IMG/VR virus record: IMGVR_UViG_3300045988_053152
Location: 1 to 36,166 of that record
DNA from: a virus
Length of the DNA: 36,166 bases
Reading direction: 5' to 3' (one strand)
Below are positions 1,051-36,166 of the stretch, in pieces. The translations under genes and the position numbers were made by a program. The number at the start of each line of letters is the position of its first letter. Within the stretch, counting starts at the first letter, position 1. The notes under the pieces are model-generated. The model was not told the DNA's origin, searched no databases, and saw only the letters and a program-made list of their open reading frames with translations.

Positions 1051-1104
1051 CATTTTGAGAGAAAACTTTATGAATTTAACTACGATTAACGTTTCGGGGT
1101 GGGG

Positions 1105-1144
1105 TGTCACATGCGAAAACAAATGTCACAGAGGAATTTGACAC
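1105..1144. promoter_or_regulatory. Cluster of TGTCACA boxes upstream of P1
   Basis: TGTCACA at 1105-1111 and 1124-1130 (19 nt apart), with an inverted TGACAC at 1139-1144. The same box recurs through both boundary modules. Confidence 0.35.
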
Positions 1145-1446
1145 TTAATGCGCTGATAATCATAGGGTTTAGGCCTAATGTCACAAATGCACAGATGTTT
1201 TCCTATTAGTATAAAACAAGAATATGTGATATACGATTTGATATATATTAACATTTAAAGCCCTTTTTAATTTTATCTCTATATAATATATCTATGACAT
1301 CTATGACATTAGGGTTAAGTACCATTATTTCAACGAGTTAGGCGTCACAGTAAAAAATCTTTAATTAATGCCGCAAAAAGTTTGTAGTCTGGTTATCAAT
1401 GACTTAGACCGCATAAATGAGTGTCACACGTGATTTTTATTGTAAA
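1143..1446. repeat. Boundary module copy A (direct repeat of 19797-20191)
   Basis: Aligned by eye: 1180-1225 vs 19901-19946 (41/46), 1271-1312 vs 20016-20057 (41/42), 1336-1446 vs 20081-20191 (98/111, no indel). No shared ORF. Confidence 0.85.
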
Positions 1447-1451
1447 CATTT

Positions 1452-2030
1452 TTAGTCGAAAGTCGCTGAAAACCGTACTTTCATCTCGGAACGCGGATTT
1501 TTGTTTGATACGGTTGTGTACAGTTTCGGCCGTCCGATTCGAAAGAAAAGGAATTTCTTTTGTTTCGCGTGTGTAACCACGTCTAAAGTATCAGTACTAT
1601 GTATGGCTATCTTGGTGCTATCCGGAAGGCTCTCCACGTTGATAACGTTCCAACCGTCATTATAATCAGCGGTTCGCCGCACGCCGGAAGAGTCTACAAC
1701 GGTCTTAACTACCGTGTCTACCTTCGTAATCGTCTCGGTTCTTGTTACGCCCTGTAACTCCTTATTCTTTATTCTTAGCTCGCGTACCTTATTATTAAGG
1801 TCTGCATTGAATAACTCTAGTTCGGACTTCTCTAGGGATAACCTGCGCGCCTGCTCGGCGTAATCTCCCGCGGTTGTCCTGTACTGCCGCGCCTCGGTAT
1901 TGATAGCCTCTATATTGCTGTCCAGGCGGGCCAGTTCTTTCTTCTGCTGCCGCACCTTCCGCACGGAGAAGAATAACAATATAGCCGCCAATGAGACGGC
2001 TAATATTAGTACTTGGTTTAATCTGCTCAT
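1452..2030 (-). CDS. Lysis-cassette membrane protein, spanin-like (N-terminal TM helix plus coiled coil)
   Basis: 192 aa. Hydrophobic LILAVSLAAILLFFSV is followed by a charged heptad-rich segment. The start overlaps the endolysin stop (ATGA). It is the last gene of the late operon. Confidence 0.45.
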   Translation of the reverse strand: MSRLNQVLILAVSLAAILLFFSVRKVRQQKKELARLDSNIEAINTEARQYRTTAGDYAEQARRLSLEKSELELFNADLNNKVRELRIKNKELQGVTRTETITKVDTVVKTVVDSSGVRRTADYNDGWNVINVESLPDSTKIAIHSTDTLDVVTHAKQKKFLFFRIGRPKLYTTVSNKNPRSEMKVRFSATFD

Positions 2031-4460: not shown

Positions 4461-5015
4461 TTATTCGAATTCTGAAATGTCGGCTGCTGCCGCTTCTGCT
4501 TCTGCTTCTTCTGCGGCCTTCTTTGCTGCTCTAGTAGCTGCGGCCTTCTTTGCGGCTGCGCTGCGTTTTGCTGCGGCAATTTCCTCCTCGGTAGGTTCTG
4601 TTACTTCCGATTCTGTTACTTCCGATTCTGTTACTTCCGGTTCTGTTACTTCCGATTCTGTTACTTCCGGCTCGGTTACTTCCGGCTCGGCCTGTTCCGG
4701 CTCGGCCTGTTCCGGAATAGTGGTAACCACAGCGTCCAGGTCGATAAAGTAATCTTTATATTCCGGGTTCGCCTCCATTAGTTCAATGGCTTTTGCGTCG
4801 TCGCAATTAAATGCGCGATATACTTTCCCGTCCTCGTATGATGTAATCGACAAGTCCGGTTTCATCACATAACGAGTGTGTTTCCCGGTCAAGTACTCAT
4901 TCTCATACCATTGTGCGGCGAACTGTCTGTCAAAACCGCATGAGTCCTCTAACTTTAAATTAGTCATGCGCACACACAGCGCCAAAATCTGTCCAATATC
5001 TTGTAATCTTTCCAT
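4461..5015 (-). CDS. Acidic repeat protein: (E/S)(P/E)EVT pentapeptide repeats plus an Ala/Lys-rich tail. Function unknown.
   Basis: 184-aa ORF with a globular N-terminal ~100 aa, then EPEQAEPEQAEPEVTEPEVTESEVT... encoded by 8 tandem 15-nt units. Confidence 0.7.
   Translation of the reverse strand: MERLQDIGQILALCVRMTNLKLEDSCGFDRQFAAQWYENEYLTGKHTRYVMKPDLSITSYEDGKVYRAFNCDDAKAIELMEANPEYKDYFIDLDAVVTTIPEQAEPEQAEPEVTEPEVTESEVTEPEVTESEVTESEVTEPTEEEIAAAKRSAAAKKAAATRAAKKAAEEAEAEAAAADISEFE
4596..4715. repeat. Tandem repeat, 15 nt x 8 (in frame, inside CDS 4461..5015)
   Basis: ttctgttacttccga-type units at 4596, 4611, 4626, 4641, 4656, 4671, 4686 and 4701, read directly. Confidence 0.9.
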
Positions 5016-17683: not shown

Positions 17684-17834
17684 CGAATTCTAGTTGTTCC
17701 ACTTGTTCGTAAAATAGCCACTCTTGTTCATCGGTCCCGTCGTACTGTACCACGACGCCCAATACATCGGCCTCCAATACCGTTCCGGTTCTTCCGTCCT
17801 CGGTAACCTGCACACGCTCGTATATCTGTATCAT
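17664..17834 (-). CDS. Small acidic ORF (56 aa) coupled to the terL stop
   Basis: Hand translation gives MIQIYERVQVTEDGRTGTVLEADVLGVVVQYDGTDEQEWLFYEQVEQLEFDEYEYE. The ATG overlaps the terL TGA (ATGA). It fills an otherwise empty 147-nt gap and is below the ORF-track size cutoff. Confidence 0.45.
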   Translation of the reverse strand: MIQIYERVQVTEDGRTGTVLEADVLGVVVQYDGTDEQEWLFYEQVEQLEFDEYEYE

Positions 17835-19000
17835 TGTGCGGCGGCTTTAGGTCGGTACTTCCGGATAAGGAAATCAACGCCGTAACGGATAGCGTCCCAT
17901 GCATGGTTAAAGTTATCTATCGGCTCGTTCGTGAACGTGTCGGTCATCTCGTCCTTGACGTAGGAATAATTATCCGCCTCATCCAGGATATCCGCGCTAC
18001 GCTTCGTTACGTGCAACTTGAACTGCTTCACCTGCTGAATGCCCGCCTTGACAGAACCTTTGCCCTTTACACACGGGATTGTCTTACAGCCGTGCTGCCG
18101 TATCTCCACGATACTTTTCTGCTCGGCGCTGTCGCACACGGTATATACATTTTGCAGCCCGTAGTCCTTAAGCGTGTCCGCTATCGTGCGGTTCAGCATT
18201 TTGGTACGGTAGCACACTTCGTCTATGTACAGGTCCCAACCTCGCATGTAGATATCGACAATTGCGGTAGGGTCGTTCTGAAAGCCGAAATCAAGCCCTA
18301 CACAGCGTTTTGTATCCTCGCCCGTTAAGAAGTCCGGCAACGCCTCAATAACCTCAATTTCGGGATATACAAGGCCTTCAAGCCCGCCCGTTTGTCCTTC
18401 TCCATACACGCGCCACCAGTTAGGGTCCTTGGCGTTGCGTTCAATAGCCTCAATTTGTTGTTCCGTCAAGAACGGGTTATCCTTGTACGTCGAGTGGATA
18501 GTAACGTACTTGTCCCCTACAAAATCGGTCTCGCCCCAAAATCTTCGGACGGGGTTAAAGTCGATAATCACCTTCAGCCTGGTACGTACATCCAATTGGC
18601 GGAATATCTCCCTGGGTATCCTTTGCGCCTCGTTGATGAACAATATATCGCGCGCCGGACCGTGCACCTTGGCCGCACTGTCGCACCCGAAAAACTCGAT
18701 ATAAACGCCTTCCTTGACGGTGTATATCATATCGGACTTGTTGAACGCGCTGTCCTCCCATACCCCTTCGTCAATCAGCATATTAGTGAAGTCACGGAGC
18801 ATGCCGCGCTTGACTGCCGGCAGCGTGTCGGTTACGCAACTGATCATTAACGGCTCGGGACTTTCCCGCGCTATCAGGTAAAGCAGCTGTAAGGTGCTCC
18901 ACGTCTTTGAGGAACGCGTACCGCCCTTACTTGCAATTCCGCGAATGGCGGGATCCATTAGCGGCTCTATCATTTTATCGAATACATATGTACACCTCAT
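17831..19000 (-). CDS. terL: Terminase large subunit (PBSX/Terminase_3-like)
   Basis: 389 aa with an N-terminal ATPase P-loop variant (GGTRSSKTWS) and a C-terminal nuclease-like half. It abuts the small-subunit gene with no gap. Confidence 0.8.
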   Translation of the reverse strand: MRCTYVFDKMIEPLMDPAIRGIASKGGTRSSKTWSTLQLLYLIARESPEPLMISCVTDTLPAVKRGMLRDFTNMLIDEGVWEDSAFNKSDMIYTVKEGVYIEFFGCDSAAKVHGPARDILFINEAQRIPREIFRQLDVRTRLKVIIDFNPVRRFWGETDFVGDKYVTIHSTYKDNPFLTEQQIEAIERNAKDPNWWRVYGEGQTGGLEGLVYPEIEVIEALPDFLTGEDTKRCVGLDFGFQNDPTAIVDIYMRGWDLYIDEVCYRTKMLNRTIADTLKDYGLQNVYTVCDSAEQKSIVEIRQHGCKTIPCVKGKGSVKAGIQQVKQFKLHVTKRSADILDEADNYSYVKDEMTDTFTNEPIDNFNHAWDAIRYGVDFLIRKYRPKAAAQ

Positions 19001-19708
19001 TTAACCCCCTTTTCCTTCGTTTTCCGAGCCTTTGTGCTCTTTCTTGAACTCCTTTAGCTTTTGCACCCTTGAGACCGTCCTGGGGTCTGAAACCTGTATT
19101 GTGAGGCCTCCCTTAATCTCCTTGCCTCCTGTGGTGTAATCGAGTGCGGTTTTGTGCCCTCTCAATGCGCGGATGTAGTTAGGGTCGAATACCTGCGCGG
19201 CCGCGCCGGCGTCCATATCCTGGAATATCATTTGCCGGATATTGTCAATTGCCTCAGCGAACGCCTTAGAGGCCTCTATGCCGAACTCCTTATAGTTGTC
19301 CTCGTATATCCGGCGACGGTCCGCCAAATAGTTGGGCGCCGCGCCAAGGAACGCGCAAAAGTCCGTTTCGGTCATCAGGCGCTTTCTTGGAATCTCTAGC
19401 AGCGTGCCTGCCATGTTACCGGACTTAACGACGTCAACCGCAATAATAGGGTGCCTATCTATCCAATCCTGGTACATGTTAAAGGCGGCAAGCAAATCTT
19501 CCGGCTCTTGCCATATAGGAACCTTCCCCCACCGTCGGCGGCATATCTGAAACACGCTGTTACAGCCGTTTTCTTCTGCCGGGTCTAGGCGCGTGCGGGA
19601 TTTCTCGAGCCGCGCCTGCGAGACCACATTTATCGCCACTCCGTCCGGCCCTCGTTCCACCAATGGGGCGGGCGCTTTTTCGTTCTTATCTTCTTTTGAA
19701 TTTTTCAT
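19001..19708 (-). CDS. terS: Terminase small subunit (probable)
   Basis: 235 aa, immediately upstream of terL. The segment TETDFCAFLGAAPNYLADRR resembles the DNA-binding core of small terminases. Confidence 0.6.
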   Translation of the reverse strand: MKNSKEDKNEKAPAPLVERGPDGVAINVVSQARLEKSRTRLDPAEENGCNSVFQICRRRWGKVPIWQEPEDLLAAFNMYQDWIDRHPIIAVDVVKSGNMAGTLLEIPRKRLMTETDFCAFLGAAPNYLADRRRIYEDNYKEFGIEASKAFAEAIDNIRQMIFQDMDAGAAAQVFDPNYIRALRGHKTALDYTTGGKEIKGGLTIQVSDPRTVSRVQKLKEFKKEHKGSENEGKGG

Positions 19709-19738: not shown

Positions 19739-19746
19739 CAAATATA
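19739..19746 (-). promoter_or_regulatory. Candidate late promoter, -7 box TATATTTG, upstream of terS
   Basis: The reverse complement of caaatata fits TAnnTTTG and lies 31 nt upstream of the terS ATG. The nearest TTTG is only 13 nt upstream, which is atypical spacing. Confidence 0.4.
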
Positions 19747-19796
19747 TGGCTTTCCCGCCCAAAAATAGGGCTAAATGCCTATAATTGCATCTTGTG

Positions 19797-20191
19797 TCAC
19801 TTAACTATCTGATTATCAAGTTATAAGGTTTTTGTGTCATCAATGTCACATATGAATAATGCCACCTAACGTACTGTGGCACAGCGAGTTAACCCCAAAC
19901 GTCACAGATTCACAGATGTTTTCCTATTAGATAAAAACAAGAATATTACTACCTCAATTTAATATCAATTAACCTATACTAATATATATCAATTCACAAT
20001 ATTAATAATCATCTTTTTTATCTCTATACAATATATCTATGACATCTATGACATTAGTACTAACTATAAGTAATTCAGTAAGTTAGGCGTCACAGTAAAA
20101 AATCCTTAATTAATGATGCAAAAAGTTTGTAGTCTGATTATCAATGACTTAAGCGTCGTAAACGAGTGTCAAAGATGATTTTTATTGTAAA
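19797..20191. repeat. Boundary module copy B (direct repeat of 1143-1446, with extra insertions)
   Basis: See the copy A alignment. Copy B carries about 55 extra nt (around 19856-19900) that include TGCCAC-N10-GTGGCA (19860-19881), and a longer AT-rich core (69 vs 45 nt). Confidence 0.85.
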
Positions 20192-20199
20192 GGTAAATT

Positions 20200-20505
20200 A
20201 GTAGAACTTTTGGTCAAAACGTTAGTAAAACAGCCCTTTTCGAGCATTCTCCCAAAAAACTTTTTGCCGAAATGACACCTTATGCATTTTCTCTCAAAAA
20301 ACTTTTTTGTCAAAAGGTTAGTAAACTCGCATTTTCGCCCGAAAAGTACGTTTTTCAAAATGTCGCACAAAAAATTTTGTGGATTTCAATTTAGCATCAA
20401 TTAACTATGTTTACTAACGTTTTGACAAAAAACTTTTCTCTCAAAATCTTTGCTTTATGATAAAAACCACATTCGCAAAGTTTTTTGAGAGAAAAGTTTT
20501 CTAAG
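20200..20505. promoter_or_regulatory. Motif-dense noncoding region (candidate operator array, origin or terminator complex)
   Basis: GTCAAAA(C/G)GTTAGTAAA at 20213-20230 and 20309-20326, and inverted at 20409-20426. TTTTGAGAGAAAAGTTTT-type motif at 20481-20500, inverted at 20287-20308 and 20429-20446, and degenerate at 20246-20266. Confidence 0.6.
20429..20500 (-). terminator. Long inverted repeat (~24-bp stem, 21-nt loop) 5 nt after the last early gene; candidate strong terminator
   Basis: 20429-20453 pairs with 20475-20500 (6 bp, a small internal loop, then 18 bp). On the minus-strand RNA the stem ends in UUUU followed by UUGUC. Confidence 0.45.
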
Positions 20506-21078
20506 TCATTCCACTACTTTTCCGTTAATATCTCGTGGAATGAACCCATATTTACCCGCCCATTCGCGTAAATTTTCGTTACGACACCTTAACGCCCCGC
20601 ACGGTTCCCGTTTTTCCCACTTGTGAAACTGCCACATCCATTCGTCCAGGGATACCGTTCCGTCTCTATAATAGTTAAGGCGGTAAACCGGGTTTGACTC
20701 TACCCGCCCCCTATACTTTAGCTTCCATGTTCCCGGGCACCACATTCGCGGGATATCCCCCGTATTGAACTTATCCAGGCGTTCGCGTTCCGGGTTCTTT
20801 AACAGCATTGTTTCAATGGTCGGTATCCTGTTTGGCTCGGTACGTGTGTTCCTGTCATCACGGACTGTCGCAATCTCATATATGATTTGCGGCAGCGCCT
20901 CGCATACCGCCATTGCGTTAACTAGGTTGTAAGGGAAACCCTTCGCTTTCCGGTAATAAATGCCGTTCGCCTTGAAGAACTTGAAAAGGAAGAACTCATT
21001 TACATTGAGTATCGTCGCTAGGTCTTCAACTACGAATTCTAGCGGTTTCTTTCTGCACTCTGATTGTTTTTGTCCCAT
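20506..21078 (-). CDS. Hypothetical protein, last gene of the early module (possible DNA-binding protein or late regulator)
   Basis: 190-aa ORF. The N-terminal segment DLATILNVNEFFLFKFFKANGI is HTH-like. The regulator idea comes from its position only. Confidence 0.55.
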   Translation of the reverse strand: MGQKQSECRKKPLEFVVEDLATILNVNEFFLFKFFKANGIYYRKAKGFPYNLVNAMAVCEALPQIIYEIATVRDDRNTRTEPNRIPTIETMLLKNPERERLDKFNTGDIPRMWCPGTWKLKYRGRVESNPVYRLNYYRDGTVSLDEWMWQFHKWEKREPCGALRCRNENLREWAGKYGFIPRDINGKVVE

Positions 21079-24839: not shown

Positions 24840-25066
24840 TATTCCCCCTTGTTGATTGTTTGGAACACTACGTTCTTCTCGTCTTCTCGGTAGTCCTCGT
24901 CACACAGGAAGTCAAGCCCCTTGCATTCGGGCACGCCCTCCGCGTTGATACTGTAAAATGCACACCCCTTACAGGTGTTGGCGTTCGCCTCTCTTACTAC
25001 GTAGGTTGTACCGTCCTTCTCAAACGTGGTGCCTACACACATATAATTATTAGCCTTATTATTCAT
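24839..25066 (-). CDS. Small Cys-rich protein (zinc-ribbon-like), paralog of 22246..22461
   Basis: 75 aa, ...DGTTYVVREANANTCKGCAFYSINAEGVPECKGLDFLC...VVFQTI. Its stop codon overlaps the SNF2 start codon by 1 nt (24839). Confidence 0.65.
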   Translation of the reverse strand: MNNKANNYMCVGTTFEKDGTTYVVREANANTCKGCAFYSINAEGVPECKGLDFLCDEDYREDEKNVVFQTINKGE

Positions 25067-25100
25067 GTCATTAAATTTTTAATTGTTATTTTTATTTTTA

Positions 25101-27005: not shown

Positions 27006-27167
27006 TTATATAGATAATTCTTTGAAAATTCGTACTTCACAATTCCACTTCTTAGCACGTCTTTCGGCTTTTCTTCTTGCTGCGGCTTCTGTATAGTCGT
27101 ACCATGTTTCCATGACGGGGTTCGTTATTCCAAATAATACACACCAATTATAAGTTTTAGTTTCCAT
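27006..27167 (-). CDS. Hypothetical small protein (53 aa)
   Basis: Start moved to METKTYNW, which is preceded by the leader atcatttaattttaaagcgttattac. The track ORF extends to 27209. Confidence 0.5.
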   Translation of the reverse strand: METKTYNWCVLFGITNPVMETWYDYTEAAARRKAERRAKKWNCEVRIFKELSI

Positions 27168-27178
27168 ATCATTTAATT

Positions 27179-27319
27179 TTAAAGCGTTATTACAGTAATG
27201 AATTCGCATTTAGCCCACAGGGAAAAATCGGTGCTACTCATATATTCGGCGTTCTTTGCCTCAATAGTTTTTGCTTCCTGTTCTGATATCTCTTTTCCGT
27301 TTACATAATACTTTTTCAT
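27179..27319 (-). CDS. Hypothetical small protein (46 aa), first ORF after promoter P2
   Basis: Hand translation gives MKKYYVNGKEISEQEAKTIEAKNAEYMSSTDFSLWAKCEFITVITL. It is preceded by a leader-like atcttctaattttaag, and its stop lies inside the next leader cassette. Confidence 0.45.
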   Translation of the reverse strand: MKKYYVNGKEISEQEAKTIEAKNAEYMSSTDFSLWAKCEFITVITL

Positions 27320-27357
27320 ATCTTCTAATTTTAAGTGGTTATTTCCTTTTGACACTT

Positions 27358-27388
27358 CAAAGATACGGATACTTTTCGGACTACAAAA
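27358..27388 (-). promoter_or_regulatory. Early promoter P2: -7 TATCTTTG, -33 TTTTG, 18-nt spacer
   Basis: ttgacacttcaaagatacggatacttttcggactacaaaac aligns with P1 and P3. The upstream motif here is GTCAAAACATTA instead of TTTTGAGAGAAAA. Confidence 0.6.
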
Positions 27389-27423
27389 CTTTTAGTCAAA
27401 ACATTAACATTCGTTATACCGTT

Positions 27424-28242: not shown

Positions 28243-28545
28243 TTAGTTGTTGGTTCGCAAAATATTAATATAAACGTCACGAAAGCGACTGCCCAAAACA
28301 GGTACGTTAAAAATGTAAGTATCTTCTTTTTCATATTCGTATGGTATTAATGATCCTGATATTCTATTTTTTATTTTTCTCGCGGATCCGTATCGTGCAC
28401 GGACCCCCGATTTGGCGAGCGCCTCATTAACGATATCCGTGATACAACCGCTTTTTGCTATGTCTGCAATAGCCCCCTGTGAAATCTCCATTGTTACCGT
28501 GGTGTCTTTTCCTCCCAGGGGGCGAAATGTTACTTTAATTTTCAT
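28243..28545 (-). CDS. MKIKVTF-family small protein, long paralog (100 aa)
   Basis: The first ~57 aa align with 28558..28749: MKIKVTF...GKD(T/S)TVTME(I/V)...IAD...C..DI......(R/T)RYG...KI. Confidence 0.6.
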   Translation of the reverse strand: MKIKVTFRPLGGKDTTVTMEISQGAIADIAKSGCITDIVNEALAKSGVRARYGSARKIKNRISGSLIPYEYEKEDTYIFNVPVLGSRFRDVYINILRTNN

Positions 28546-28557
28546 ATACGTATGGTA

Positions 28558-28749
28558 TTATATGTCCAGGTCTTCAATTTTAGCTATATATCCGTATCGT
28601 GTACGGCCCTCTGTTTTGTCGGACGCCTTATCGGCTATGTCCGAGGAACAATATTCTTTTAACAGGTCCGCGATAAGTTCTTGCCGAACCTCCATTGTCA
28701 CCGTTGAGTCTTTTCCTTCCTGGAAGCTAAATGTTACTTTAATTTTCAT
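28558..28749 (-). CDS. MKIKVTF-family small protein, short paralog (63 aa)
   Basis: Tandem paralog of 28243..28545, preceded by the conserved leader cassette. Confidence 0.6.
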   Translation of the reverse strand: MKIKVTFSFQEGKDSTVTMEVRQELIADLLKEYCSSDIADKASDKTEGRTRYGYIAKIEDLDI

Positions 28750-28776
28750 GATTCTTTAATTTTAAAGGGTTATTAA
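28750..28776 (-). repeat. Conserved gene-junction/leader cassette (minus strand TTAATAACCCTTTAAAATTAAAGAATC-ATG)
   Basis: gattctttaattttaaagggttattaa. It differs at 2-3 positions from the identical 26-mers at 29064-29089 and 29275-29300. Confidence 0.85.
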
Positions 28777-28811: not shown

Positions 28812-29063
28812 TTACTTGATTATTACACATTCTTTGCTGTTAATCTTCTCGTCCTGTATATTGACGGCTACATACTTAAGGCTCTTAAGGTCGTACAGAA
28901 CCGCGATAGTGTTACACCCGTTAGCGGTGTTATAGTCGTTGACTACGTTCACGAATTCGTATATCTTATTACCTACTGATATCTTAACGTTGGTTTGTCT
29001 GAACAAATCGAATGTTACCACATAGCTAAATTTCTTCTTTTCGTCTATCATTTTAGTTGCCAT
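28812..29063 (-). CDS. Hypothetical small protein
   Basis: 83-aa ORF preceded by the leader cassette. Confidence 0.55.
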   Translation of the reverse strand: MATKMIDEKKKFSYVVTFDLFRQTNVKISVGNKIYEFVNVVNDYNTANGCNTIAVLYDLKSLKYVAVNIQDEKINSKECVIIK

Positions 29064-29089
29064 ATCTTTTAATTTTAAAGGGTTATTAA
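29064..29089 (-). repeat. Conserved gene-junction/leader cassette, identical to 29275-29300
   Basis: atcttttaattttaaagggttattaa. Its distal end contains the TAA stop of the upstream gene. Confidence 0.9.
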
Positions 29090-29274
29090 TTACATTTAAT
29101 GTATCCGAATTCGGACATAAATTTTTCGGCCTTCGCCAATGACTTGTATGTTTTACTAGTTGATACCGTTACGGCCGTATAGGTCGGTTTGCCTAGATAA
29201 TTATCTATCATTATAGCGCCCGTAGGTTCATTGCTAGTGCTGCACGCCTTCTTATAATCTATTACATCGTTCAT
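29086..29274 (-). CDS. Hypothetical small protein, first gene after promoter P3
   Basis: 62-aa ORF preceded by the leader cassette. Confidence 0.55.
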   Translation of the reverse strand: MNDVIDYKKACSTSNEPTGAIMIDNYLGKPTYTAVTVSTSKTYKSLAKAEKFMSEFGYIKCN

Positions 29275-29300
29275 ATCTTTTAATTTTAAAGGGTTATTAA
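29275..29300 (-). repeat. Conserved gene-junction/leader cassette, identical to 29064-29089
   Basis: atcttttaattttaaagggttattaa, lying between P3 and the ATG at 29274. Confidence 0.9.
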
Positions 29301-29316
29301 TTTCTTATCGACACTA

Positions 29317-29347
29317 CAAAGATACGGATACTTTTTGAACTACAAAA
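29317..29347 (-). promoter_or_regulatory. Early promoter P3: -7 TATCTTTG, -33 TTTTG, 18-nt spacer
   Basis: 29304-29327 is identical to 1007-1030 (24 nt), and ttttgaactacaaaac is identical to P1. Upstream lies TTTTGAGAAAAAAAACTTT, with the inverted repeat CTACAAA...TTTGTAG. Confidence 0.6.
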
Positions 29348-29487
29348 CTTTTTGAGAAAAAAAACTTTGTAGATTTAACATAAATAAAGAAAAGGAAACG
29401 TTTCGCAACGTCTCCCCTCTGAACTGTAAACCCCTTAAATTAGTAGTTGATTGAAATGAAATTGAGTAGTATTTGATTCTCTCTTTG

Positions 29488-29495
29488 CAAAGATA
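29488..29495 (-). promoter_or_regulatory. Additional -7-like box TATCTTTG inside the palindrome CTTTGCAAAG, just after the primase stop
   Basis: The reverse complement of caaagata. No convincing -33 box. Confidence 0.25.
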
Positions 29496-29496
29496 G

Positions 29497-31881
29497 TTAT
29501 TCTTTCGGGATATCCGTGCCCACTCGCCTATAAATTAGCTGCCGCCCGTAAAGTTTTAGCCGGGCCTGTTTACCGCGCTTCCACCCCTTAAGAGATTTCA
29601 ATGCATTGGCAATCTCCCGGCCCTTCGCGGTTGTGTAATCTTCTTTCTTCCGGCCTAACGCCTCGGTCCACACCTCGATAAGGCTGCATGTGTCCTTGCG
29701 CACCGTCCCGACCTCGCCCAAATCACCGTTAAGAAAGTCCAGGCGTTGAGGCAGAAACCTATCTTCATAGTCCGCCGGGAACAATCTATCTAGGTAGTCC
29801 TCTATCAGACCCTGTAACGGCGTGCGCTCTGTAAATTCGTCCCTCATTCCGCCTGCTATCATTTCGGCCTCATCGGACAATGTAAGCGCCTCGCCAAATA
29901 TATAGGCGTTCATGGCTTCCGCCCAAAGCTGGTCTACGATAGCGTCGAATTGCGGCTCAAAGATAACATGTGTTTTCTTCACGCGCCTAACGGCTACCGG
30001 GAAAAATCGGCGGTTACCTGTTGCGTCTTTCAGAAACTCATCATCATTCGTGGAGCCGAAAAACACGCATTGTCTTTGGTGCGTCTTAACGCGTCGGGCA
30101 TATGCGCCTCTGTACGTATCTTCGCGCTTTGAAATGAAGTTCTTAACCGCCTCGACATCGGAACGCCTCAACGCGGATAACTCGGCTAGCTCCACGAGCC
30201 ACGCGAATTGTATAGCTTCGTATGACTCTTTGCCGGAAAGACTCGTTAACGAGTCGTTAAACCAGCCCTTTGAAAGACGCTGTATTAACGTGGACTTTCC
30301 GACACCCTGTTCGGAGTAAAATACCAGGGCGGTGTCAAACTTGGTGCCGGGCTTGTAAATGCGCGTAACGGCAGCCAATAGCATTTTGCGGAATGCCTCC
30401 CTTGTATACGCGTTATCCTCGGCCCCCATGTATTCGATTAAAAACGTATCAATACGTTCTACACCGTCCCATGTAAGAGATTCCAGGTAATTTTTTATCG
30501 GGTGGAACGCGTTATCACTGCTCACCTGTTCGATAGCGTCATTTAGCTTTGCATCATTATATATACCGTGCAACCGCTCTATCCGACCCTTAATAATTGA
30601 TACGTCCGTGTCGGTGATAAGGTCGCCTTTTTTGCTCCCCTTGCAAGTAAAGGAAGGCCGGGTAAACACGATAGTTTCCTTTAACATGTCATAGGCTAGC
30701 AGTCCATTTAATAACGGGTCCGATTTAAATGCGTTGATAAAGTTGTTGACGGTTACCTGCTTGTTCCCCTTTCCGTCCAGGTCCCAAACCAAATCGGTTA
30801 TGTCCTCGGCGCTGTCTGACTTGGTGTCATCTCCGTAATCGTCGAAGTCGTTTAAATCGGCATCCGGCGTAATCAAGTCCTTAACACAGTATTTATCTTC
30901 GCAAACCAGCTTGTTCATTGCCTTCGTGCTGTCCTCTTTACCCAGGTGCCCGAACTTGTGCACACGTACAAGGTCGTAGGCGTTATAGGCGTGCCCGTCT
31001 GATATCGGGTCGGTGGAGTGGTACGAGAAGCAGTACAAACCGTCAAACACTATCATTCCGCCTACGCTTTGCCCGGCCTTGTAGGTGTAACGGTCGGTTC
31101 CCTGGTAAACATCGTACACGTCCGACAGATACTTTTCTATGGCTTCCTGCACGGTGTACGCCCGGCAGAACGCGCCCACCAGGCCGGACTTTTCGCGGGG
31201 GTTCTGCGCCATTGCCTTATTCACAATCGCGCGGGTCTCTTTCTCCGTGTCGGACTTGAACGCCCAATTATTGATATCCCGCCATTCCTCACCATTGCCG
31301 TACAGCGACAGAAGGTAATCGGCGCTAATCGGTTCGCCCTCTATCACGTCGAACACTTTAGGCTGGTCCGCGGAAAGAGATTGCCAATACATCATTCGTT
31401 CCGCCTGAAAGGTCGTAGGGTCGAACAAGTCCACGCCTATCAACTCGGCAACCTTACGCGCCGCGGCTTCGTACTGCACGGGGTCTTGTACCTCATCAGC
31501 GAATGGCATGATAAGGCGGAACCGTCTGGATGTCTCGCGGTCTGAACGTGTGTTATATATTACCGCGGCTACGCCTGGGAACCTAGCTTCAAATTCAACC
31601 GGGAAAAGCTCATCCGCGTAATCTACGTCTAATGTTATCATAGACCTGGATAACACCGCGCTTTTAAGGCGTCTAGCGCCGGAAAGTTCCCCTGCCATAT
31701 ATCCCCCGACATCTTTCAGATTGGCGCGCGCCGTGCGGTCAAGGCGGTCGAACTCGCGCATAGATTCCGGGCTGCGTACCTCTTTACCGAGTCTTTCCAA
31801 AAACCCCTCCCATGTGTATCTGACAGTCGCCCATTTCATTGAGGCGGAACTTCCCGCCACCGACAAAGTATATTTATCCAT
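29497..31881 (-). CDS. Primase-helicase: N-terminal AEP (PrimPol-like) primase plus a C-terminal SF3/D5-VirE-type P-loop helicase
   Basis: 794 aa. MITLDVDYADE is the AEP DxD motif, YSEQGVGKSTL is Walker A, and AWLVELAEL is a Walker B-like motif. Size and order match phage/plasmid primases. Confidence 0.8.
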   Translation of the reverse strand: MDKYTLSVAGSSASMKWATVRYTWEGFLERLGKEVRSPESMREFDRLDRTARANLKDVGGYMAGELSGARRLKSAVLSRSMITLDVDYADELFPVEFEARFPGVAAVIYNTRSDRETSRRFRLIMPFADEVQDPVQYEAAARKVAELIGVDLFDPTTFQAERMMYWQSLSADQPKVFDVIEGEPISADYLLSLYGNGEEWRDINNWAFKSDTEKETRAIVNKAMAQNPREKSGLVGAFCRAYTVQEAIEKYLSDVYDVYQGTDRYTYKAGQSVGGMIVFDGLYCFSYHSTDPISDGHAYNAYDLVRVHKFGHLGKEDSTKAMNKLVCEDKYCVKDLITPDADLNDFDDYGDDTKSDSAEDITDLVWDLDGKGNKQVTVNNFINAFKSDPLLNGLLAYDMLKETIVFTRPSFTCKGSKKGDLITDTDVSIIKGRIERLHGIYNDAKLNDAIEQVSSDNAFHPIKNYLESLTWDGVERIDTFLIEYMGAEDNAYTREAFRKMLLAAVTRIYKPGTKFDTALVFYSEQGVGKSTLIQRLSKGWFNDSLTSLSGKESYEAIQFAWLVELAELSALRRSDVEAVKNFISKREDTYRGAYARRVKTHQRQCVFFGSTNDDEFLKDATGNRRFFPVAVRRVKKTHVIFEPQFDAIVDQLWAEAMNAYIFGEALTLSDEAEMIAGGMRDEFTERTPLQGLIEDYLDRLFPADYEDRFLPQRLDFLNGDLGEVGTVRKDTCSLIEVWTEALGRKKEDYTTAKGREIANALKSLKGWKRGKQARLKLYGRQLIYRRVGTDIPKE

Positions 31882-31884
31882 ATC

Positions 31885-33876
31885 TTAATCTTTTTTGTAA
31901 TAATTACTTATAAATCCTTCCGCGTTCAACGGAATGCCGAACGGTTCGGCCCACGCGGGCGTACTCGCCATAGCCTGGCAAATCTCCTTGAGTGTTACAA
32001 CGGGCTCCCCAAAATCATCTACGGGCACCTCGTTAACCACCTCGTCATGGATATGCCCCACTATATCAGCCTCGGGATATCGGGCGCGAATAGTCTGCAT
32101 ACCGTACACTAGTATATCACGGCTCACTGCCTGCGTTAGGTTCTCGGCTAGCTTTCCGCCGTATGTGTCGAGTTCCGACCATTTGCCCGTTAAATCGGTG
32201 CCCATGTACGTAATAACGCTACGTTCACGGCCCTTGATACTCTTGGTCTTTATTTTGCATTCCGGGTAAAACAGGCGGCGGCCGGACGGCAACAGGATAG
32301 CAAGTGAACTGTTTTCTTCAAACCATTCGAAACGGCACACCCATACACCGTACTGTATTACATCTACGCGGGCTTTGTTGCGTATGCATAGCTTCGCTTT
32401 ACTTTCAAGAACCTCCCAAAATTCCACGATACGCGGCGACGCGTCCCGCCAGCGTAATATGATATCCTTGTACAGAGCCGGGTCTATTGACTTTTCGTAG
32501 TCCATTGTTTCCATGGCGCCGACCCAACCACCGTACCCTAGAGCTAGCTCCGTTACCTTTCCTTGCTGCCTGTAATGTGTCCCTTTCCCACATTGTTCCT
32601 CGGGTAGGCTAAATGTACGGCTAGCGGATACTACGTATATATCTTTCCCGTTCCGGAACGCGTCCAAACGCCATTCTTCACGGGCCAGGCCCGCCAATAC
32701 GCGCGCCTCAATTGCGCTATAATCGGCTACTACGAATACCTTTCCTTCGTCCGCTATAAATGCGGTACGGATAAGTTGCGAAAGCATCCCGGGGGCGTCG
32801 CCCCAAAATAATTCAAACGTAGCTAAATCAACATTTTTAGCGTCTTCACGGCACGAGTCCAACTCGTGGATATAGTTACGCGGTAAGTTCTGCATCTGCA
32901 CCAGGCGGCCCGCAAAACGGCCCGTCCGGCCTGCTCCATAATAGCGGTACAATCCGTGTACACGCCCGTCCGGGCATACACAGTTAAGCATAGCGGTATA
33001 TTTCGCATTGCTCGTCTTATTAATGATTTTGCGGGACTCTAGCACCTCGGTTACCTGGCTGTCGTTGCACGCTGCTATAATACCGTCGATATCTTCTTTC
33101 CTGAAAGAATCAAATGTTATTCCGGAACGGGCAAAACAAAATTCTTGCAATCGCTTGGTTGACTTCAAAGATGAGATGTTATACAGGTCCTTAATATGGT
33201 TTTTCAGGCCCTCGCAAAAATCGTTGTTGAGGTTTTCGGCATTCGTGGCTAGTCCTACATCCACCTTTATCCCGGTATCATTAATGTATTGGTCCAGGGC
33301 GTAAACTTCGCGTTCCGAGTCCGGAAACATACAGTACTCTAGTCTGTGGTACGCTTCGCGTTCGGAAAGTACGTCATAACGGAGATAGTCCTTAAATTCC
33401 TCAGCCTTCTCCGGGTAATCCTTCATGTAGTTACGGTACACACCGTCTTTTTTGCTCTGTTGGGGAATGCTGAAAAACTTTATCAGCGCTAGCCCGGTGC
33501 CCTTCTTTCCTTCTTTGAGGTTAAGCGCTGCCGACAGCATTTTAAGCGATTCCGGAAACCCTGCATATAGCGCCAGGGACGCGGTGCATAAAAATCTATC
33601 TGCGGGAATATCAATGCCGTAGGCCTTCAGGCACAATCTTTCGAATTGCGCATTGTGCGATACTATTGTATATTGGGCGTCCTCCATTAGGGATATGAAT
33701 TTCTGCCACCCATTTCTATCTTCCGCAACATCAACTATAACTACATCACTATCCCCAACCGCGTAACCGACCAAAAGTATTTCAAAGTCAAACGACATCG
33801 TATATCTATACGCGCCGCCCGCCTTAATATCCTCGCTCGAAAAAGTTTCGAAGTCTATGAAAATTGGGATAATCAT
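31885..33876 (-). CDS. Family A DNA polymerase with a 3'-5' exonuclease domain
   Basis: 663 aa with ExoI IFIDFETFS, motif A VADYSAIEARVLA, motif B RQQGKVTELALGYGG and motif C GHIHDEVV. Confidence 0.9.
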   Translation of the reverse strand: MIIPIFIDFETFSSEDIKAGGAYRYTMSFDFEILLVGYAVGDSDVVIVDVAEDRNGWQKFISLMEDAQYTIVSHNAQFERLCLKAYGIDIPADRFLCTASLALYAGFPESLKMLSAALNLKEGKKGTGLALIKFFSIPQQSKKDGVYRNYMKDYPEKAEEFKDYLRYDVLSEREAYHRLEYCMFPDSEREVYALDQYINDTGIKVDVGLATNAENLNNDFCEGLKNHIKDLYNISSLKSTKRLQEFCFARSGITFDSFRKEDIDGIIAACNDSQVTEVLESRKIINKTSNAKYTAMLNCVCPDGRVHGLYRYYGAGRTGRFAGRLVQMQNLPRNYIHELDSCREDAKNVDLATFELFWGDAPGMLSQLIRTAFIADEGKVFVVADYSAIEARVLAGLAREEWRLDAFRNGKDIYVVSASRTFSLPEEQCGKGTHYRQQGKVTELALGYGGWVGAMETMDYEKSIDPALYKDIILRWRDASPRIVEFWEVLESKAKLCIRNKARVDVIQYGVWVCRFEWFEENSSLAILLPSGRRLFYPECKIKTKSIKGRERSVITYMGTDLTGKWSELDTYGGKLAENLTQAVSRDILVYGMQTIRARYPEADIVGHIHDEVVNEVPVDDFGEPVVTLKEICQAMASTPAWAEPFGIPLNAEGFISNYYKKD

Positions 33877-35824: not shown

Positions 35825-36166
35825 AGGTTTTCCTCAATGTACTTGATAAAGTCGGCGAAATTCTCGGGTGCCAGGGTCGGGAAAGACGATGCCCCGACAT
35901 AGCCGAACGCGTCTTTGACAACCTCCCTACGGCCCTTGTTTAGCGCTTTCATGGCTACGGCCTTAGCCTCTTCCATAGTGTACGTTACCGGTTCCTTAGC
36001 TTGTTCCGGTTCCTTTACGGGTTCCTTAGCTTGTTCCGGTTCCTTTACGGGTTCCTTAGCTTGTTCCACTTCCTTAGGTTGTTCCGGTTCCTTAGGTTGT
36101 TCCGGTTCTGTCTTTACTTCCGGCGCGGCTTTCGTTCTACGTCCGGCGGGTTTTTTAGGTTCTTCC
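35821..36166 (-). CDS. C-terminal part of the junction-spanning CDS (see 1..309)
   Basis: The frame stays open from the window end down to the stop at 35821. The track start at 36069 is an internal GTG. Repeats are TEPEQPKEPEQPKE and (EQAKEPVKEP)x2.5, followed by a ~55-aa C-terminal domain. Confidence 0.7.
   Translation of the reverse strand, partial: EEPKKPAGRRTKAAPEVKTEPEQPKEPEQPKEVEQAKEPVKEPEQAKEPVKEPEQAKEPVTYTMEEAKAVAMKALNKGRREVVKDAFGYVGASSFPTLAPENFADFIKYIEENL
35991..36108. repeat. In-frame tandem repeats: 30 nt x ~2.5, then 18 nt x 2
   Basis: gttccttagcttgttccggttcctttacgg at 35991 and 36021, with a partial copy at 36051. ttccttaggttgttccgg at ~36070 and ~36088. Confidence 0.9.
36112..36166. 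repeat. Terminal 55-bp sequence identical to 1-55
   Basis: See feature 1-55. Confidence 0.95.

Follow-up and report, generated by a model that had tools for sequence, protein, structure and literature searches.

A duplicated intergenic module at the operon junctions of an SJC01-like Bacteroides siphophage resembles an iteron-type replication origin

Introduction

What is the function of a non-coding element that a phage genome carries twice, once at each junction between its early and late operons, and that its relatives keep at the same two positions? The window analyzed here, by which we mean the whole stretch of 36,166 nucleotides, is the circular genome of an SJC01-like siphophage of Bacteroides caccae, and it raises this question at positions 19790-20200, in the gap between the end of the early operon and the promoter of the small terminase gene. 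An earlier note on this DNA had proposed that the element found there (copy B), together with its counterpart at 1100-1446 (copy A), represents either two origins or a paired control of transcription. The anatomy of the element and a Rep1 homologue encoded by the phage favor the first of these proposals, and the second is weakened.

SJC01-like siphophages are among the phages most often isolated from human gut Bacteroides and Phocaeicola, and nothing on their replication was found in the literature searched. Here we describe the module as a real, conserved, two-copy cis element, and argue that both copies most likely serve as replication origins of the iteron type or as initiator-loading sites.

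Results

Genome organization

The assembly is circular at 36,111 bp with a k-mer overlap, bases 1-55 being identical to 36112-36166. A break in the record of the relative BC679P5, which falls inside copy B, was considered as a genome end or pac site and rejected, its 55-nt duplicated overlap being an assembly artefact like that of the window. All credible genes lie on the minus strand. The late operon runs from 19708 down to 1452; the early operon starts from a promoter at about 1020, passes through the circle junction and continues down to 20506, with genes for a DUF2800 nuclease, an Enc34/gp2.5-type SSB, a family A polymerase, a 794-aa primase-helicase, a VRR-NUC nuclease, an SNF2 helicase and a methyltransferase. 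A PHROGs scan covered thirty ORFs of the window (the genes for replication, further early genes, terS, terL and the final late gene), with subsets also searched in Pfam and NCBIfam. Neither a reverse transcriptase nor an integrase or ParB turned up among these 30 ORFs, which, together with the fixed positions of the copies in all relatives, gave no lead towards a diversity-generating retroelement, attP, partition site or mobile element; the NCBIfam scan of ten early proteins gave no matches. GC skew is negative throughout the genome and carries no origin signal; with all genes on one strand, it is uninformative on this point. The features that frame the two copies are as follows.

19001-19708, minus strand: small terminase gene terS, first gene of the late operon
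17831-19000, minus strand: large terminase gene terL, late operon
1452-2030, minus strand: DUF6549 protein gene, last gene of the late operon
19739-19746, minus strand: terS (late) promoter, -7 box TATATTTG, some 50 nt past copy B
20195-20505, minus strand: hairpin-rich tail of the early operon, terminator-like or regulatory, upstream of copy B in the direction of transcription and outside the repeat
29497-31881, minus strand: primase-helicase gene (794 aa; PHROG and Pfam matches), candidate box binder

The nearest isolates are the B. caccae phages BC679P1-5 and BC669P1-3, and more distant relatives with the same gene order come from B. ovatus, B. koreensis, B. thetaiotaomicron and Phocaeicola. 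The window phage and these relatives belong to the 'cluster alpha' SJC01-like siphophages, in which PhageTerm detected no fixed ends and for which headful packaging has been suggested (bioRxiv 10.1101/2020.03.04.977157).

The early promoter is present three times, at 1020, 27358 and 29317, with a module upstream of one only. The late promoter was correctly placed by the earlier note at about 50 bp from copy B, its -7 box reading TATATTTG on the minus strand at 19746-19739; it lacks a -33 TTTG at the normal spacing and may for this reason need an activator. The distance from the module to the next promoter is fairly constant in the window phage and its relatives, at 50-60 nt, which would also suit a regulatory role. 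On its other side, the early operon seems to stop before copy B. The transcribed strand of 20195-20505 folds into long hairpins (-92.7 kcal/mol, z = -6.4) and holds several inverted repeats, and large hairpins, different ones, occupy the same position at the early-operon tail of relatives.

Two copies of one module

Copy B is a diverged direct copy of copy A, and both are non-coding. The two stand at the two junctions of the circle, copy A where the late operon gives way to the early one and copy B where the early operon gives way to the late one. Copy A lies 18.7 kb from copy B and terS, at the far end of the late operon.

19790-20191, plus strand: module copy B, candidate origin, between the early-operon end and the terS promoter; direct repeat of 1100-1446
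1100-1446, plus strand: module copy A, direct repeat of copy B

A blastn search of the window with copy A aligned 351 nt at 74% identity (E = 1e-57). Most similar is a right block of 176 nt (1271-1446 against 20016-20191, 86% identity, direct), and a left block of 87 nt (1139-1225 against 19860-19946, 74% identity, also direct) follows the same order. This repeat search and alignment bear out the earlier description of three blocks shared in the same order and orientation. Several finer details of that description could also be read directly off the DNA, namely the perfect dyad TGCCAC (19860-19865) N10 GTGGCA (19876-19881), a stretch between blocks 2 and 3 of 69 nt in copy B (19947-20015) against 45 nt in copy A (1226-1270), a terminal box that reads gtgtcaaagatg at 20166-20177 in copy B and gtgtcacacgtg at 1421-1432 in copy A, and a weak additional similarity of cacttaac (19798-19805) and ctgattatca (19809-19818) to 1141-1170. 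The extra sequence of copy B, previously described as a 55-nt insertion, does exist; it is better understood as a tandem doubling of the sub-block CACYTAAC-N3-CT..CAG, whose units occupy 19798-19831 and 19862-19895. Which of the two units counts as 'extra' depends on the alignment.

Module anatomy

Each module consists of short boxes and palindromes arranged around an AT-rich core. Read from the promoter side outward, the elements of copy B are listed first, followed by those of copy A.

19794-19800, 19834-19840 and 19844-19850, plus strand: outer boxes GTGTCAC, GTGTCAT and TGTCACA on the promoter side of copy B
Within 19794-19850, plus strand: palindromic element CACTTAAC..CTGATTATCA.., enclosed by the promoter-side outer boxes
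19860-19895, plus strand: second sub-block CACYTAAC-N3-CT..CAG, containing the dyad, in register with 1139-1174 of copy A
19901-19917, plus strand: inner iteron pair left of the core, GTCACAGAT and TTCACAGAT, pointing to the core
19918-20034: AT-rich core of copy B (117 nt), candidate DNA-unwinding element, starting TTTTCCTATTAG (CTAATAGGAAAA on the coding strand)
20035-20052, minus strand: inner iteron pair right of the core, two copies of GTCATAGAT at a 9-nt period, pointing to the core
20088-20094, plus strand: outer box CGTCACA, in the conserved right block of copy B
20134-20153, plus strand: palindrome CTGATTATCA and GACTTAAG at the far end of copy B, a second kind of site that is conserved across lineages
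20166-20191, plus strand: terminal box GTGTCAAAGATG and conserved module end TTTTTATTGTAAA of copy B
1105-1111, 1124-1130, 1343-1349 and 1422-1428, plus strand: outer boxes of copy A
1153-1162 and 1389-1398: palindromes of copy A
1180-1197 (plus strand) and 1290-1307 (minus strand): inner pairs of copy A, flanking its core
1198-1289: AT-rich core of copy A (92 nt between the inner pairs)

The boxes are strongly concentrated in the modules. All five exact genome matches to GTCAYAGAT lie inside the two copies, as do 11 of the 18 found with up to one mismatch, and the matches in the modules are on the plus strand to the left of each core and on the minus strand to the right of it. For GTCACA, 8 of the 18 genome matches fall within 772 bp of module sequence, all on the plus strand, a 37-fold enrichment. 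When TGTCACA and GTCAYAGAT are considered together with up to one mismatch, copy B contains about 10 boxes and copy A about 9, with enrichments of 15- to 37-fold relative to the remaining genome. Around the cores these boxes form opposed tandem pairs, starting at 19901 and 19909 (plus) against 20035 and 20044 (minus) in copy B, and at 1180 and 1189 (plus) against 1290 and 1299 (minus) in copy A. The two arms of copy B (19901-19917 and 20035-20052) constitute an inverted repeat, which is paired in the DNA-fold centroid. Scanning generally for inverted arms of 18 nt, with four mismatches allowed, did not recover the inner pairs of the window cleanly, because these arms match at only 14 of 18 positions; we relied instead on stability minima and k-mer enrichment.

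The DNA enclosed by the inner pairs is the least stable of the genome. The lowest-ranking 100-bp segment starts at 19940 (-101.4 kcal/mol, 82% AT, against a genome mean of -138.3 and a standard deviation of 9.2) and the second lowest at 1204, in the core of copy A (-103 kcal/mol), which places both cores about four standard deviations from the mean duplex stability. A second motif, the palindrome TGATNATCA with arms CTTAAC/GTTAAG, is present at both ends of each module; the SJC01 counterpart of the far-end palindrome of copy B (20134-20153) is GTTGATAATCAAC.

Conservation within the Bacteroides caccae phages

The six complete phage genomes of B. caccae that we examined all carry the module, as do 14 IMG/VR stretches; each complete genome has one copy at each of the two fixed positions. 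The right block is 88-89% identical in every comparison, whether between A copies, between B copies, or between A and B within or across genomes, which indicates the same constraint at both positions, and it is conserved about as well as the neighboring genes. The core is always AT-rich and variable in sequence, with three unrelated types that have been exchanged between positions A and B and between phages. In some relatives, copy B includes about 30 nt that are coding sequence at position A.

Against this background, few of the differences between the two copies of the window prove to be general. The earlier note had suggested that the insertion be aligned across relatives; every B copy has the doubled sub-block on the promoter side and no A copy does, whereas only 3 of the 15 B copies from relatives retain the dyad TGCCAC-N10-GTGGCA. 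Likewise, the GTCAAAG terminal box is peculiar to the window isolate, as the B copies of most relatives read GTCAC. The dyad, the length of the core and the altered terminal box are isolate-specific, and with cores swapped between positions and a right block as similar between A and B as within either, the idea that such copy-specific differences encode early-versus-late signals is not supported. The only position-specific part of the module is its promoter-proximal end.

Conservation across lineages

The two-copy layout extends to six lineages of Bacteroides and Phocaeicola phages, represented besides the B. caccae group by BKO1-1, BK735P4, SJC01, BV57P1 and BM127P2. One copy lies in each of the same two operon-junction gaps, and in all relatives the copies keep these fixed positions. 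Read in the direction of transcription, all twelve modules follow one plan of outer boxes, tandem pair, AT core, inverted pair, palindrome and promoter, and the AT core of each of the twelve ends in TAGGAAAA.

The sequence of the box is specific to the lineage, while the architecture is conserved. In BKO1-1 the box is GTAAAAGAT; in BK735P4 it is GGAAAGAT with GTCATAGAT, and the two 18-nt arms form a perfect inverted repeat; in SJC01 it is GGATAGAT, and 10 of the 12 genome matches to ATCTATCC lie inside the modules of that phage. The Phocaeicola phages use TGGAACA, and IMG/VR relatives add GTAATAGAT, TGCATAGAT and TGGCACAG. The box has changed at least eight times, on each occasion throughout all boxes of both copies. 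Such concerted change under a fixed architecture is what would be expected of binding sites for a co-evolving protein. Low stability is a further shared property: the cores are the two least stable 100-bp segments in four of the six lineages (the window phage, BKO1-1, BK735P4 and BM127P2) and rank first and third in SJC01 and BV57P1. In PM116P5, a relative from Parabacteroides, the module is at best present in reduced form, which we count against the interpretation of the module as an origin.

A candidate initiator

The protein most likely to recognize such boxes is the 794-aa primase-helicase. It consists of an N-terminal primase, a superfamily 3 (SF3) helicase of the VapE type and a C-terminal winged helix. 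By sequence, residues 376-713 match PDB entry 7pds with E = 3e-77. When residues 367-794 were modelled with AlphaFold (pLDDT 89), the entire model could be superposed on 7pds (TM 0.79-0.84, 33-34% identity); its next structural matches are the helicase region of the phage NrS-1 polymerase and SaPI5 PriRep5. Model residues 344-420, at the C-terminal end, show the helix-helix-helix-hairpin topology of a winged helix. The entry 7pds is Rep1 of SaPI1 bound to DNA; SaPI Reps are self-loading initiator-helicases whose C-terminal winged helix binds iterons, and the origins on which they act hold 6-12 iterons and an AT-rich center, with at least two iterons per side in opposite directions (PMC9371898).

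Comparison between lineages points in the same direction. The C-terminal part is the most divergent region of the primase-helicase, with 13-31% identity between lineages against 55-77% in the helicase core, and lineages whose boxes differ also differ in the predicted recognition helix and wing; among the B. caccae phages, which share one box, the region is nearly invariant. No other early protein that all six lineages have kept has a precedent for recognizing iterons. The link between C-terminal class and box type is visible only when whole lineages are compared, and these differ in all their other proteins too. At finer scale, two C-terminal classes (the window type and an 85%-identity group) have one box in common, and among the B. 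ovatus phages the subtypes of the box and of the C-terminus are not cleanly matched, although one Lys/Asn position of the wing trends with box subtype, with exceptions. We accordingly treat the primase-helicase as a lead to the box-binding protein and not as proof of its identity.

The location of the modules relative to this gene is also less simple than in the SaPIs. One is 9.3 kb downstream of the helicase gene and the other about 5.4 kb upstream, a point against origin function. The roughly 220 nt that follow the helicase gene (29275-29496), where a SaPI-like placement next to rep would put the origin, contain an early promoter and no boxes, and no other candidate origin was found near the gene.

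Discussion

The features described above enable us to propose a model in which copies A and B are two copies of an iteron origin of the SaPI type, possibly used in the way that SPP1 uses oriL and oriR. We consider this model probable, as it is favored by inverted iteron pairs placed at the least stable DNA, by lineage-specific boxes and by the Rep1 homologue. In this model, the primase-helicase would bind the GTCAYAGAT boxes through its C-terminal winged helix, and the facing box pairs would allow two helicase rings to assemble on either side of the 117-nt AT-rich core, which the rings would then melt so that replication could start. The outer boxes and the TGATNATCA palindromes may add further protein binding. 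By analogy with SPP1 oriL and oriR, both copies may fire. Alternatively, one copy may fire and the other, held by the initiator, may stall the fork and so help the switch to concatemers for headful packaging. From anatomy and homology, then, we infer the binding protein, the melting of the core, the origin activity and the division of labor between the copies.

A more elaborate form of this model, in which the copies are non-redundant parts of a two-origin system tied to the one-directional gene layout, is unlikely in our estimation. In one version, the main direction of firing from each origin would be into the next operon, and replication would then run the same way round the circle as transcription; in another, one would fire, and the initiator-bound second copy half a genome away would stall the fork and lead to concatemer synthesis. 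In either version, initiator occupancy would simultaneously tune the neighboring early and late promoters. Such a system would explain both the placement of the modules at the junctions in six lineages and their position-specific promoter-proximal ends.

Several other explanations need to be weighed. The module could be a transcription-control region in which the boxes are operators and the core is bent or UP-like DNA, with a regulator such as the 62-aa helix-turn-helix protein (306-494) or the 112-aa protein (464-802) setting the early promoter at copy A and the late promoter at copy B. The regular 50-60 nt between each copy and its promoter, the late promoter that may need an activator, the confinement of position-specific sequence to the promoter-proximal end and the nature of the first genes after copy A, which encode small proteins, one with a weak DNA-binding match (annotated as HTH in BKO1-1), are all in keeping with this. 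However, the early promoter also occurs at 27358 and 29317 with no module upstream, the Phocaeicola phages keep the module but yielded no homologue of either small protein, and an element of 350-400 bp that combines at least 10 boxes with an inverted double pair and the genome's least stable DNA far exceeds what a promoter usually needs. Furthermore, no TAnnTTTG was found on either strand within 19790-20200 or 1100-1446, and no terminator-like site (a GC-rich hairpin with a T run) inside either module copy. We therefore regard transcription control as rather unlikely to be the explanation, though it could coexist with origin function. A pac region is distinctly improbable: here the small terminase would bind copy B as in SPP1, and copy A would be a second pac or a relic. 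Copy B does lie directly upstream of terS, PhageTerm gave no defined ends for related phages, which have been suggested to package by the headful mechanism, and the boxes of SPP1 pac flank its cleavage site on both sides. Yet every lineage has an equally conserved copy 18.7 kb from terS, known pac sites are, to our knowledge, single, the right block shows no position-specific divergence, and inverted iteron pairs around a melting-prone core fit origins better.

The shuffling of cores and sub-blocks between positions A and B and between phages, together with the B copies that carry about 30 nt of what is coding sequence at position A, might instead suggest a conserved linker for homologous exchange between phages or positions, or a relic duplication without function. 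This is improbable, given that the architecture was kept while the boxes changed in concert at least eight times, which implies selection on protein binding and not on mere homology, and that the right block is about as conserved as adjacent genes. Strong conservation of non-coding sequence could also reflect a small non-coding RNA or a small protein, and some GenBank relatives have a plus-strand ORF annotated over copy A; these annotated ORFs vary in length, are absent in some relatives and overrun the early promoter, and we judge products of either kind very improbable. A structured RNA was rejected as a candidate: an Rfam search at gathering thresholds and a tRNA scan were empty and the folds were unremarkable, the RNAalifold consensus of 27 module copies reaching only -3 to -6 kcal/mol on either strand and the single-strand fold of the module being no better than shuffled sequence (z = -0.11).

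If the origin model is correct, SJC01-like phages would gain defined origins and a likely initiator, and the role of a duplicated origin would become directly testable. The staphylococcal system of self-loading helicase and iterons would extend to virulent phages of a distant phylum. Moreover, the evolution of initiator specificity could be studied on a set of eight or more box variants, each matched by a distinct form of the helicase C-terminus, and the modules could supply parts for phage-dependent replicons or phage engineering.

Comparison with known systems

Of the systems compared here, the SaPI origin shares the anatomy of the module. In both, at least two iterons on each side face each other across a central AT-rich region, the number of boxes (about 10 in copy B and 9 in copy A) falls in the range of 6-12, and the whole spans some 300-400 bp; the SaPI and the phage each encode an SF3 helicase of the initiator type with a C-terminal winged helix, which in the phage is fused to a primase as in SaPI5 PriRep5. 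The differences are equally clear. SaPI origins lie directly downstream of rep, whereas the phage modules are away from the helicase gene and occur as two copies per genome at operon junctions. The phage boxes are 9 nt long and in tandem pairs, in contrast to SaPI iterons of 5-6 nt, and the modules have additional palindromic TGATNATCA sites. Finally, the SaPIs are Gram-positive satellites and the window phage is a virulent-looking Bacteroides siphophage, in which binding is predicted from homology.

A precedent for one helicase acting at two sites is provided by satellite phage P4, whose fused primase-helicase binds the same short iterons at two separate cis sites through its C-terminal domain. 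These sites, ori and crr, are both needed for replication; they are separated by 4.5 kb and are not built alike. P4 differs from the window phage in helicase family and in the sequence of its iterons.

SPP1, the closest precedent for two similar origins in one phage, differs in its machinery and resembles the window phage in its layout. Its origins are bound by a dedicated protein (gp38) that works with a loader and a DnaB-type helicase, as opposed to the SF3 VapE-type helicase of the window phage; no gp38-, gp39- or gp40-like protein was found among the 30 ORFs scanned against PHROGs or the subsets run against Pfam and NCBIfam. SPP1 oriL lies inside the initiator gene, unlike the modules, and SPP1 repeats are direct, whereas the boxes form inverted pairs. 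Nevertheless, SPP1 is a headful-packaging siphophage with one of its origins in a non-coding gap of the late region, and repeats with an AT-rich unwinding element are common to oriL and oriR; firing occurs at oriL, and the initiator bound at oriR is proposed to stall the fork and lead to recombination-dependent concatemer synthesis (PMC6316719). In both phages, a single siphophage genome carries two similarly built sites of repeats and an AT-rich element. The window phage also encodes a recombination set that matches the logic of SPP1 (an exonuclease, an annealing SSB and the VRR-NUC nuclease), which makes a comparable route to concatemers possible.

Ends of the module and their surroundings

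Each copy of the module, the non-coding repeat that is a candidate iteron origin, carries the same palindrome at both ends:

1153-1162 and 1389-1398 (copy A), 19809-19818 and 20134-20143 (copy B): palindrome TGATNATCA

CTTAAC/GTTAAG arms often accompany it, and it is kept, as GTTGATAATCAAC, even in the more distant SJC01 lineage despite the different iteron there. This suggests that a second factor, either host-derived or conserved among the phages, binds the module alongside the protein that would recognize the iterons. The annotation of some relatives places open reading frames (ORFs) across both copy A and the early promoter:

938-1141 (window), 1141-1443 (L002), 32507-32704 (L003), 20051-20269 (B. 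caccae phage BC679P5), plus strand: ORFs

These ORFs vary in length among the relatives that have them, are missing in others, and are probably spurious.

Early promoters, shared leader and operon end

The early operon has three near-identical promoters, and several of its small genes share a leader:

994-1065, 27332-27403, 29291-29362, minus strand: early promoters, TTTG, 18 nt, TATCTTTG
25045-25091, 27146-27192, 27298-27344, 28729-28775, 29042-29088, 29253-29299: conserved leader of about 45 nt, TAATAACCCTTTAAAATTAAAAGATATG... on the coding strand
20195-20510, minus strand: nested long inverted repeats where the early operon ends

A TTTTCTCTCAAAA-like element precedes all three promoters; a module lies upstream of the one at 994-1065 only. 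The leader stands ahead of five or six small early genes and may be a common signal for translation initiation or processing. At the far end of the operon, the inverted repeats are made of TTTTGAGAGAAAA, the motif also found upstream of these early promoters, and the region folds as RNA at -92.7 kcal/mol (z = -6.4). It may act as a terminator, or alternatively as a decoy or operator cluster; relatives carry other large hairpins at the matching position.

Repeats, duplication and assembly ends

Two neighboring small early genes (28386-28545 and 28590-28749) share 72% DNA identity and are a local gene duplication. Tandem repeats also occur in frame within ORFs:

4566-4714: 15-nt units
35985-36110: 30- and 18-nt units

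The second set lies next to the assembly junction. The window is a circular assembly, as positions 1-55 overlap 36112-36166. End overlaps are likewise left in GenBank entries marked as linear complete genomes (BC679P5, L025, L027, L022 and Parabacteroides phage PM116P5, L026); they measure 55 nt, except for 141 nt in the BKO1-1 record and 66 nt in that of PM116P5. In BC679P5 the doubled 55 nt fall in the copy B core and look like an insertion.

Comparison with other phages

In PM116P5 (18976-19347 and 67-724) a clear two-copy repeat was not found; the sole common piece is a short TTGTTGATAC..ATA element, in one gap an inverted pair around approximately 80 AT-rich nt, which may be the module in reduced or replaced form. 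Larger Bacteroidales phages (L078, IMG/VR, a 51-kb phage) encode a primase-helicase 38% identical to that of the window, and a related arrangement lies approximately 5 kb upstream of its gene:

4640-4870 (L078): GTAAACAAAGAAACAATAA and its inverse flanking an AT-rich stretch

This element immediately precedes a promoter and an HTH-like gene. Because these larger phages carry both the GTAAACAAAGAAACAATAA pair and a related primase-helicase, the candidate origin type may extend beyond the 36-kb phage group.
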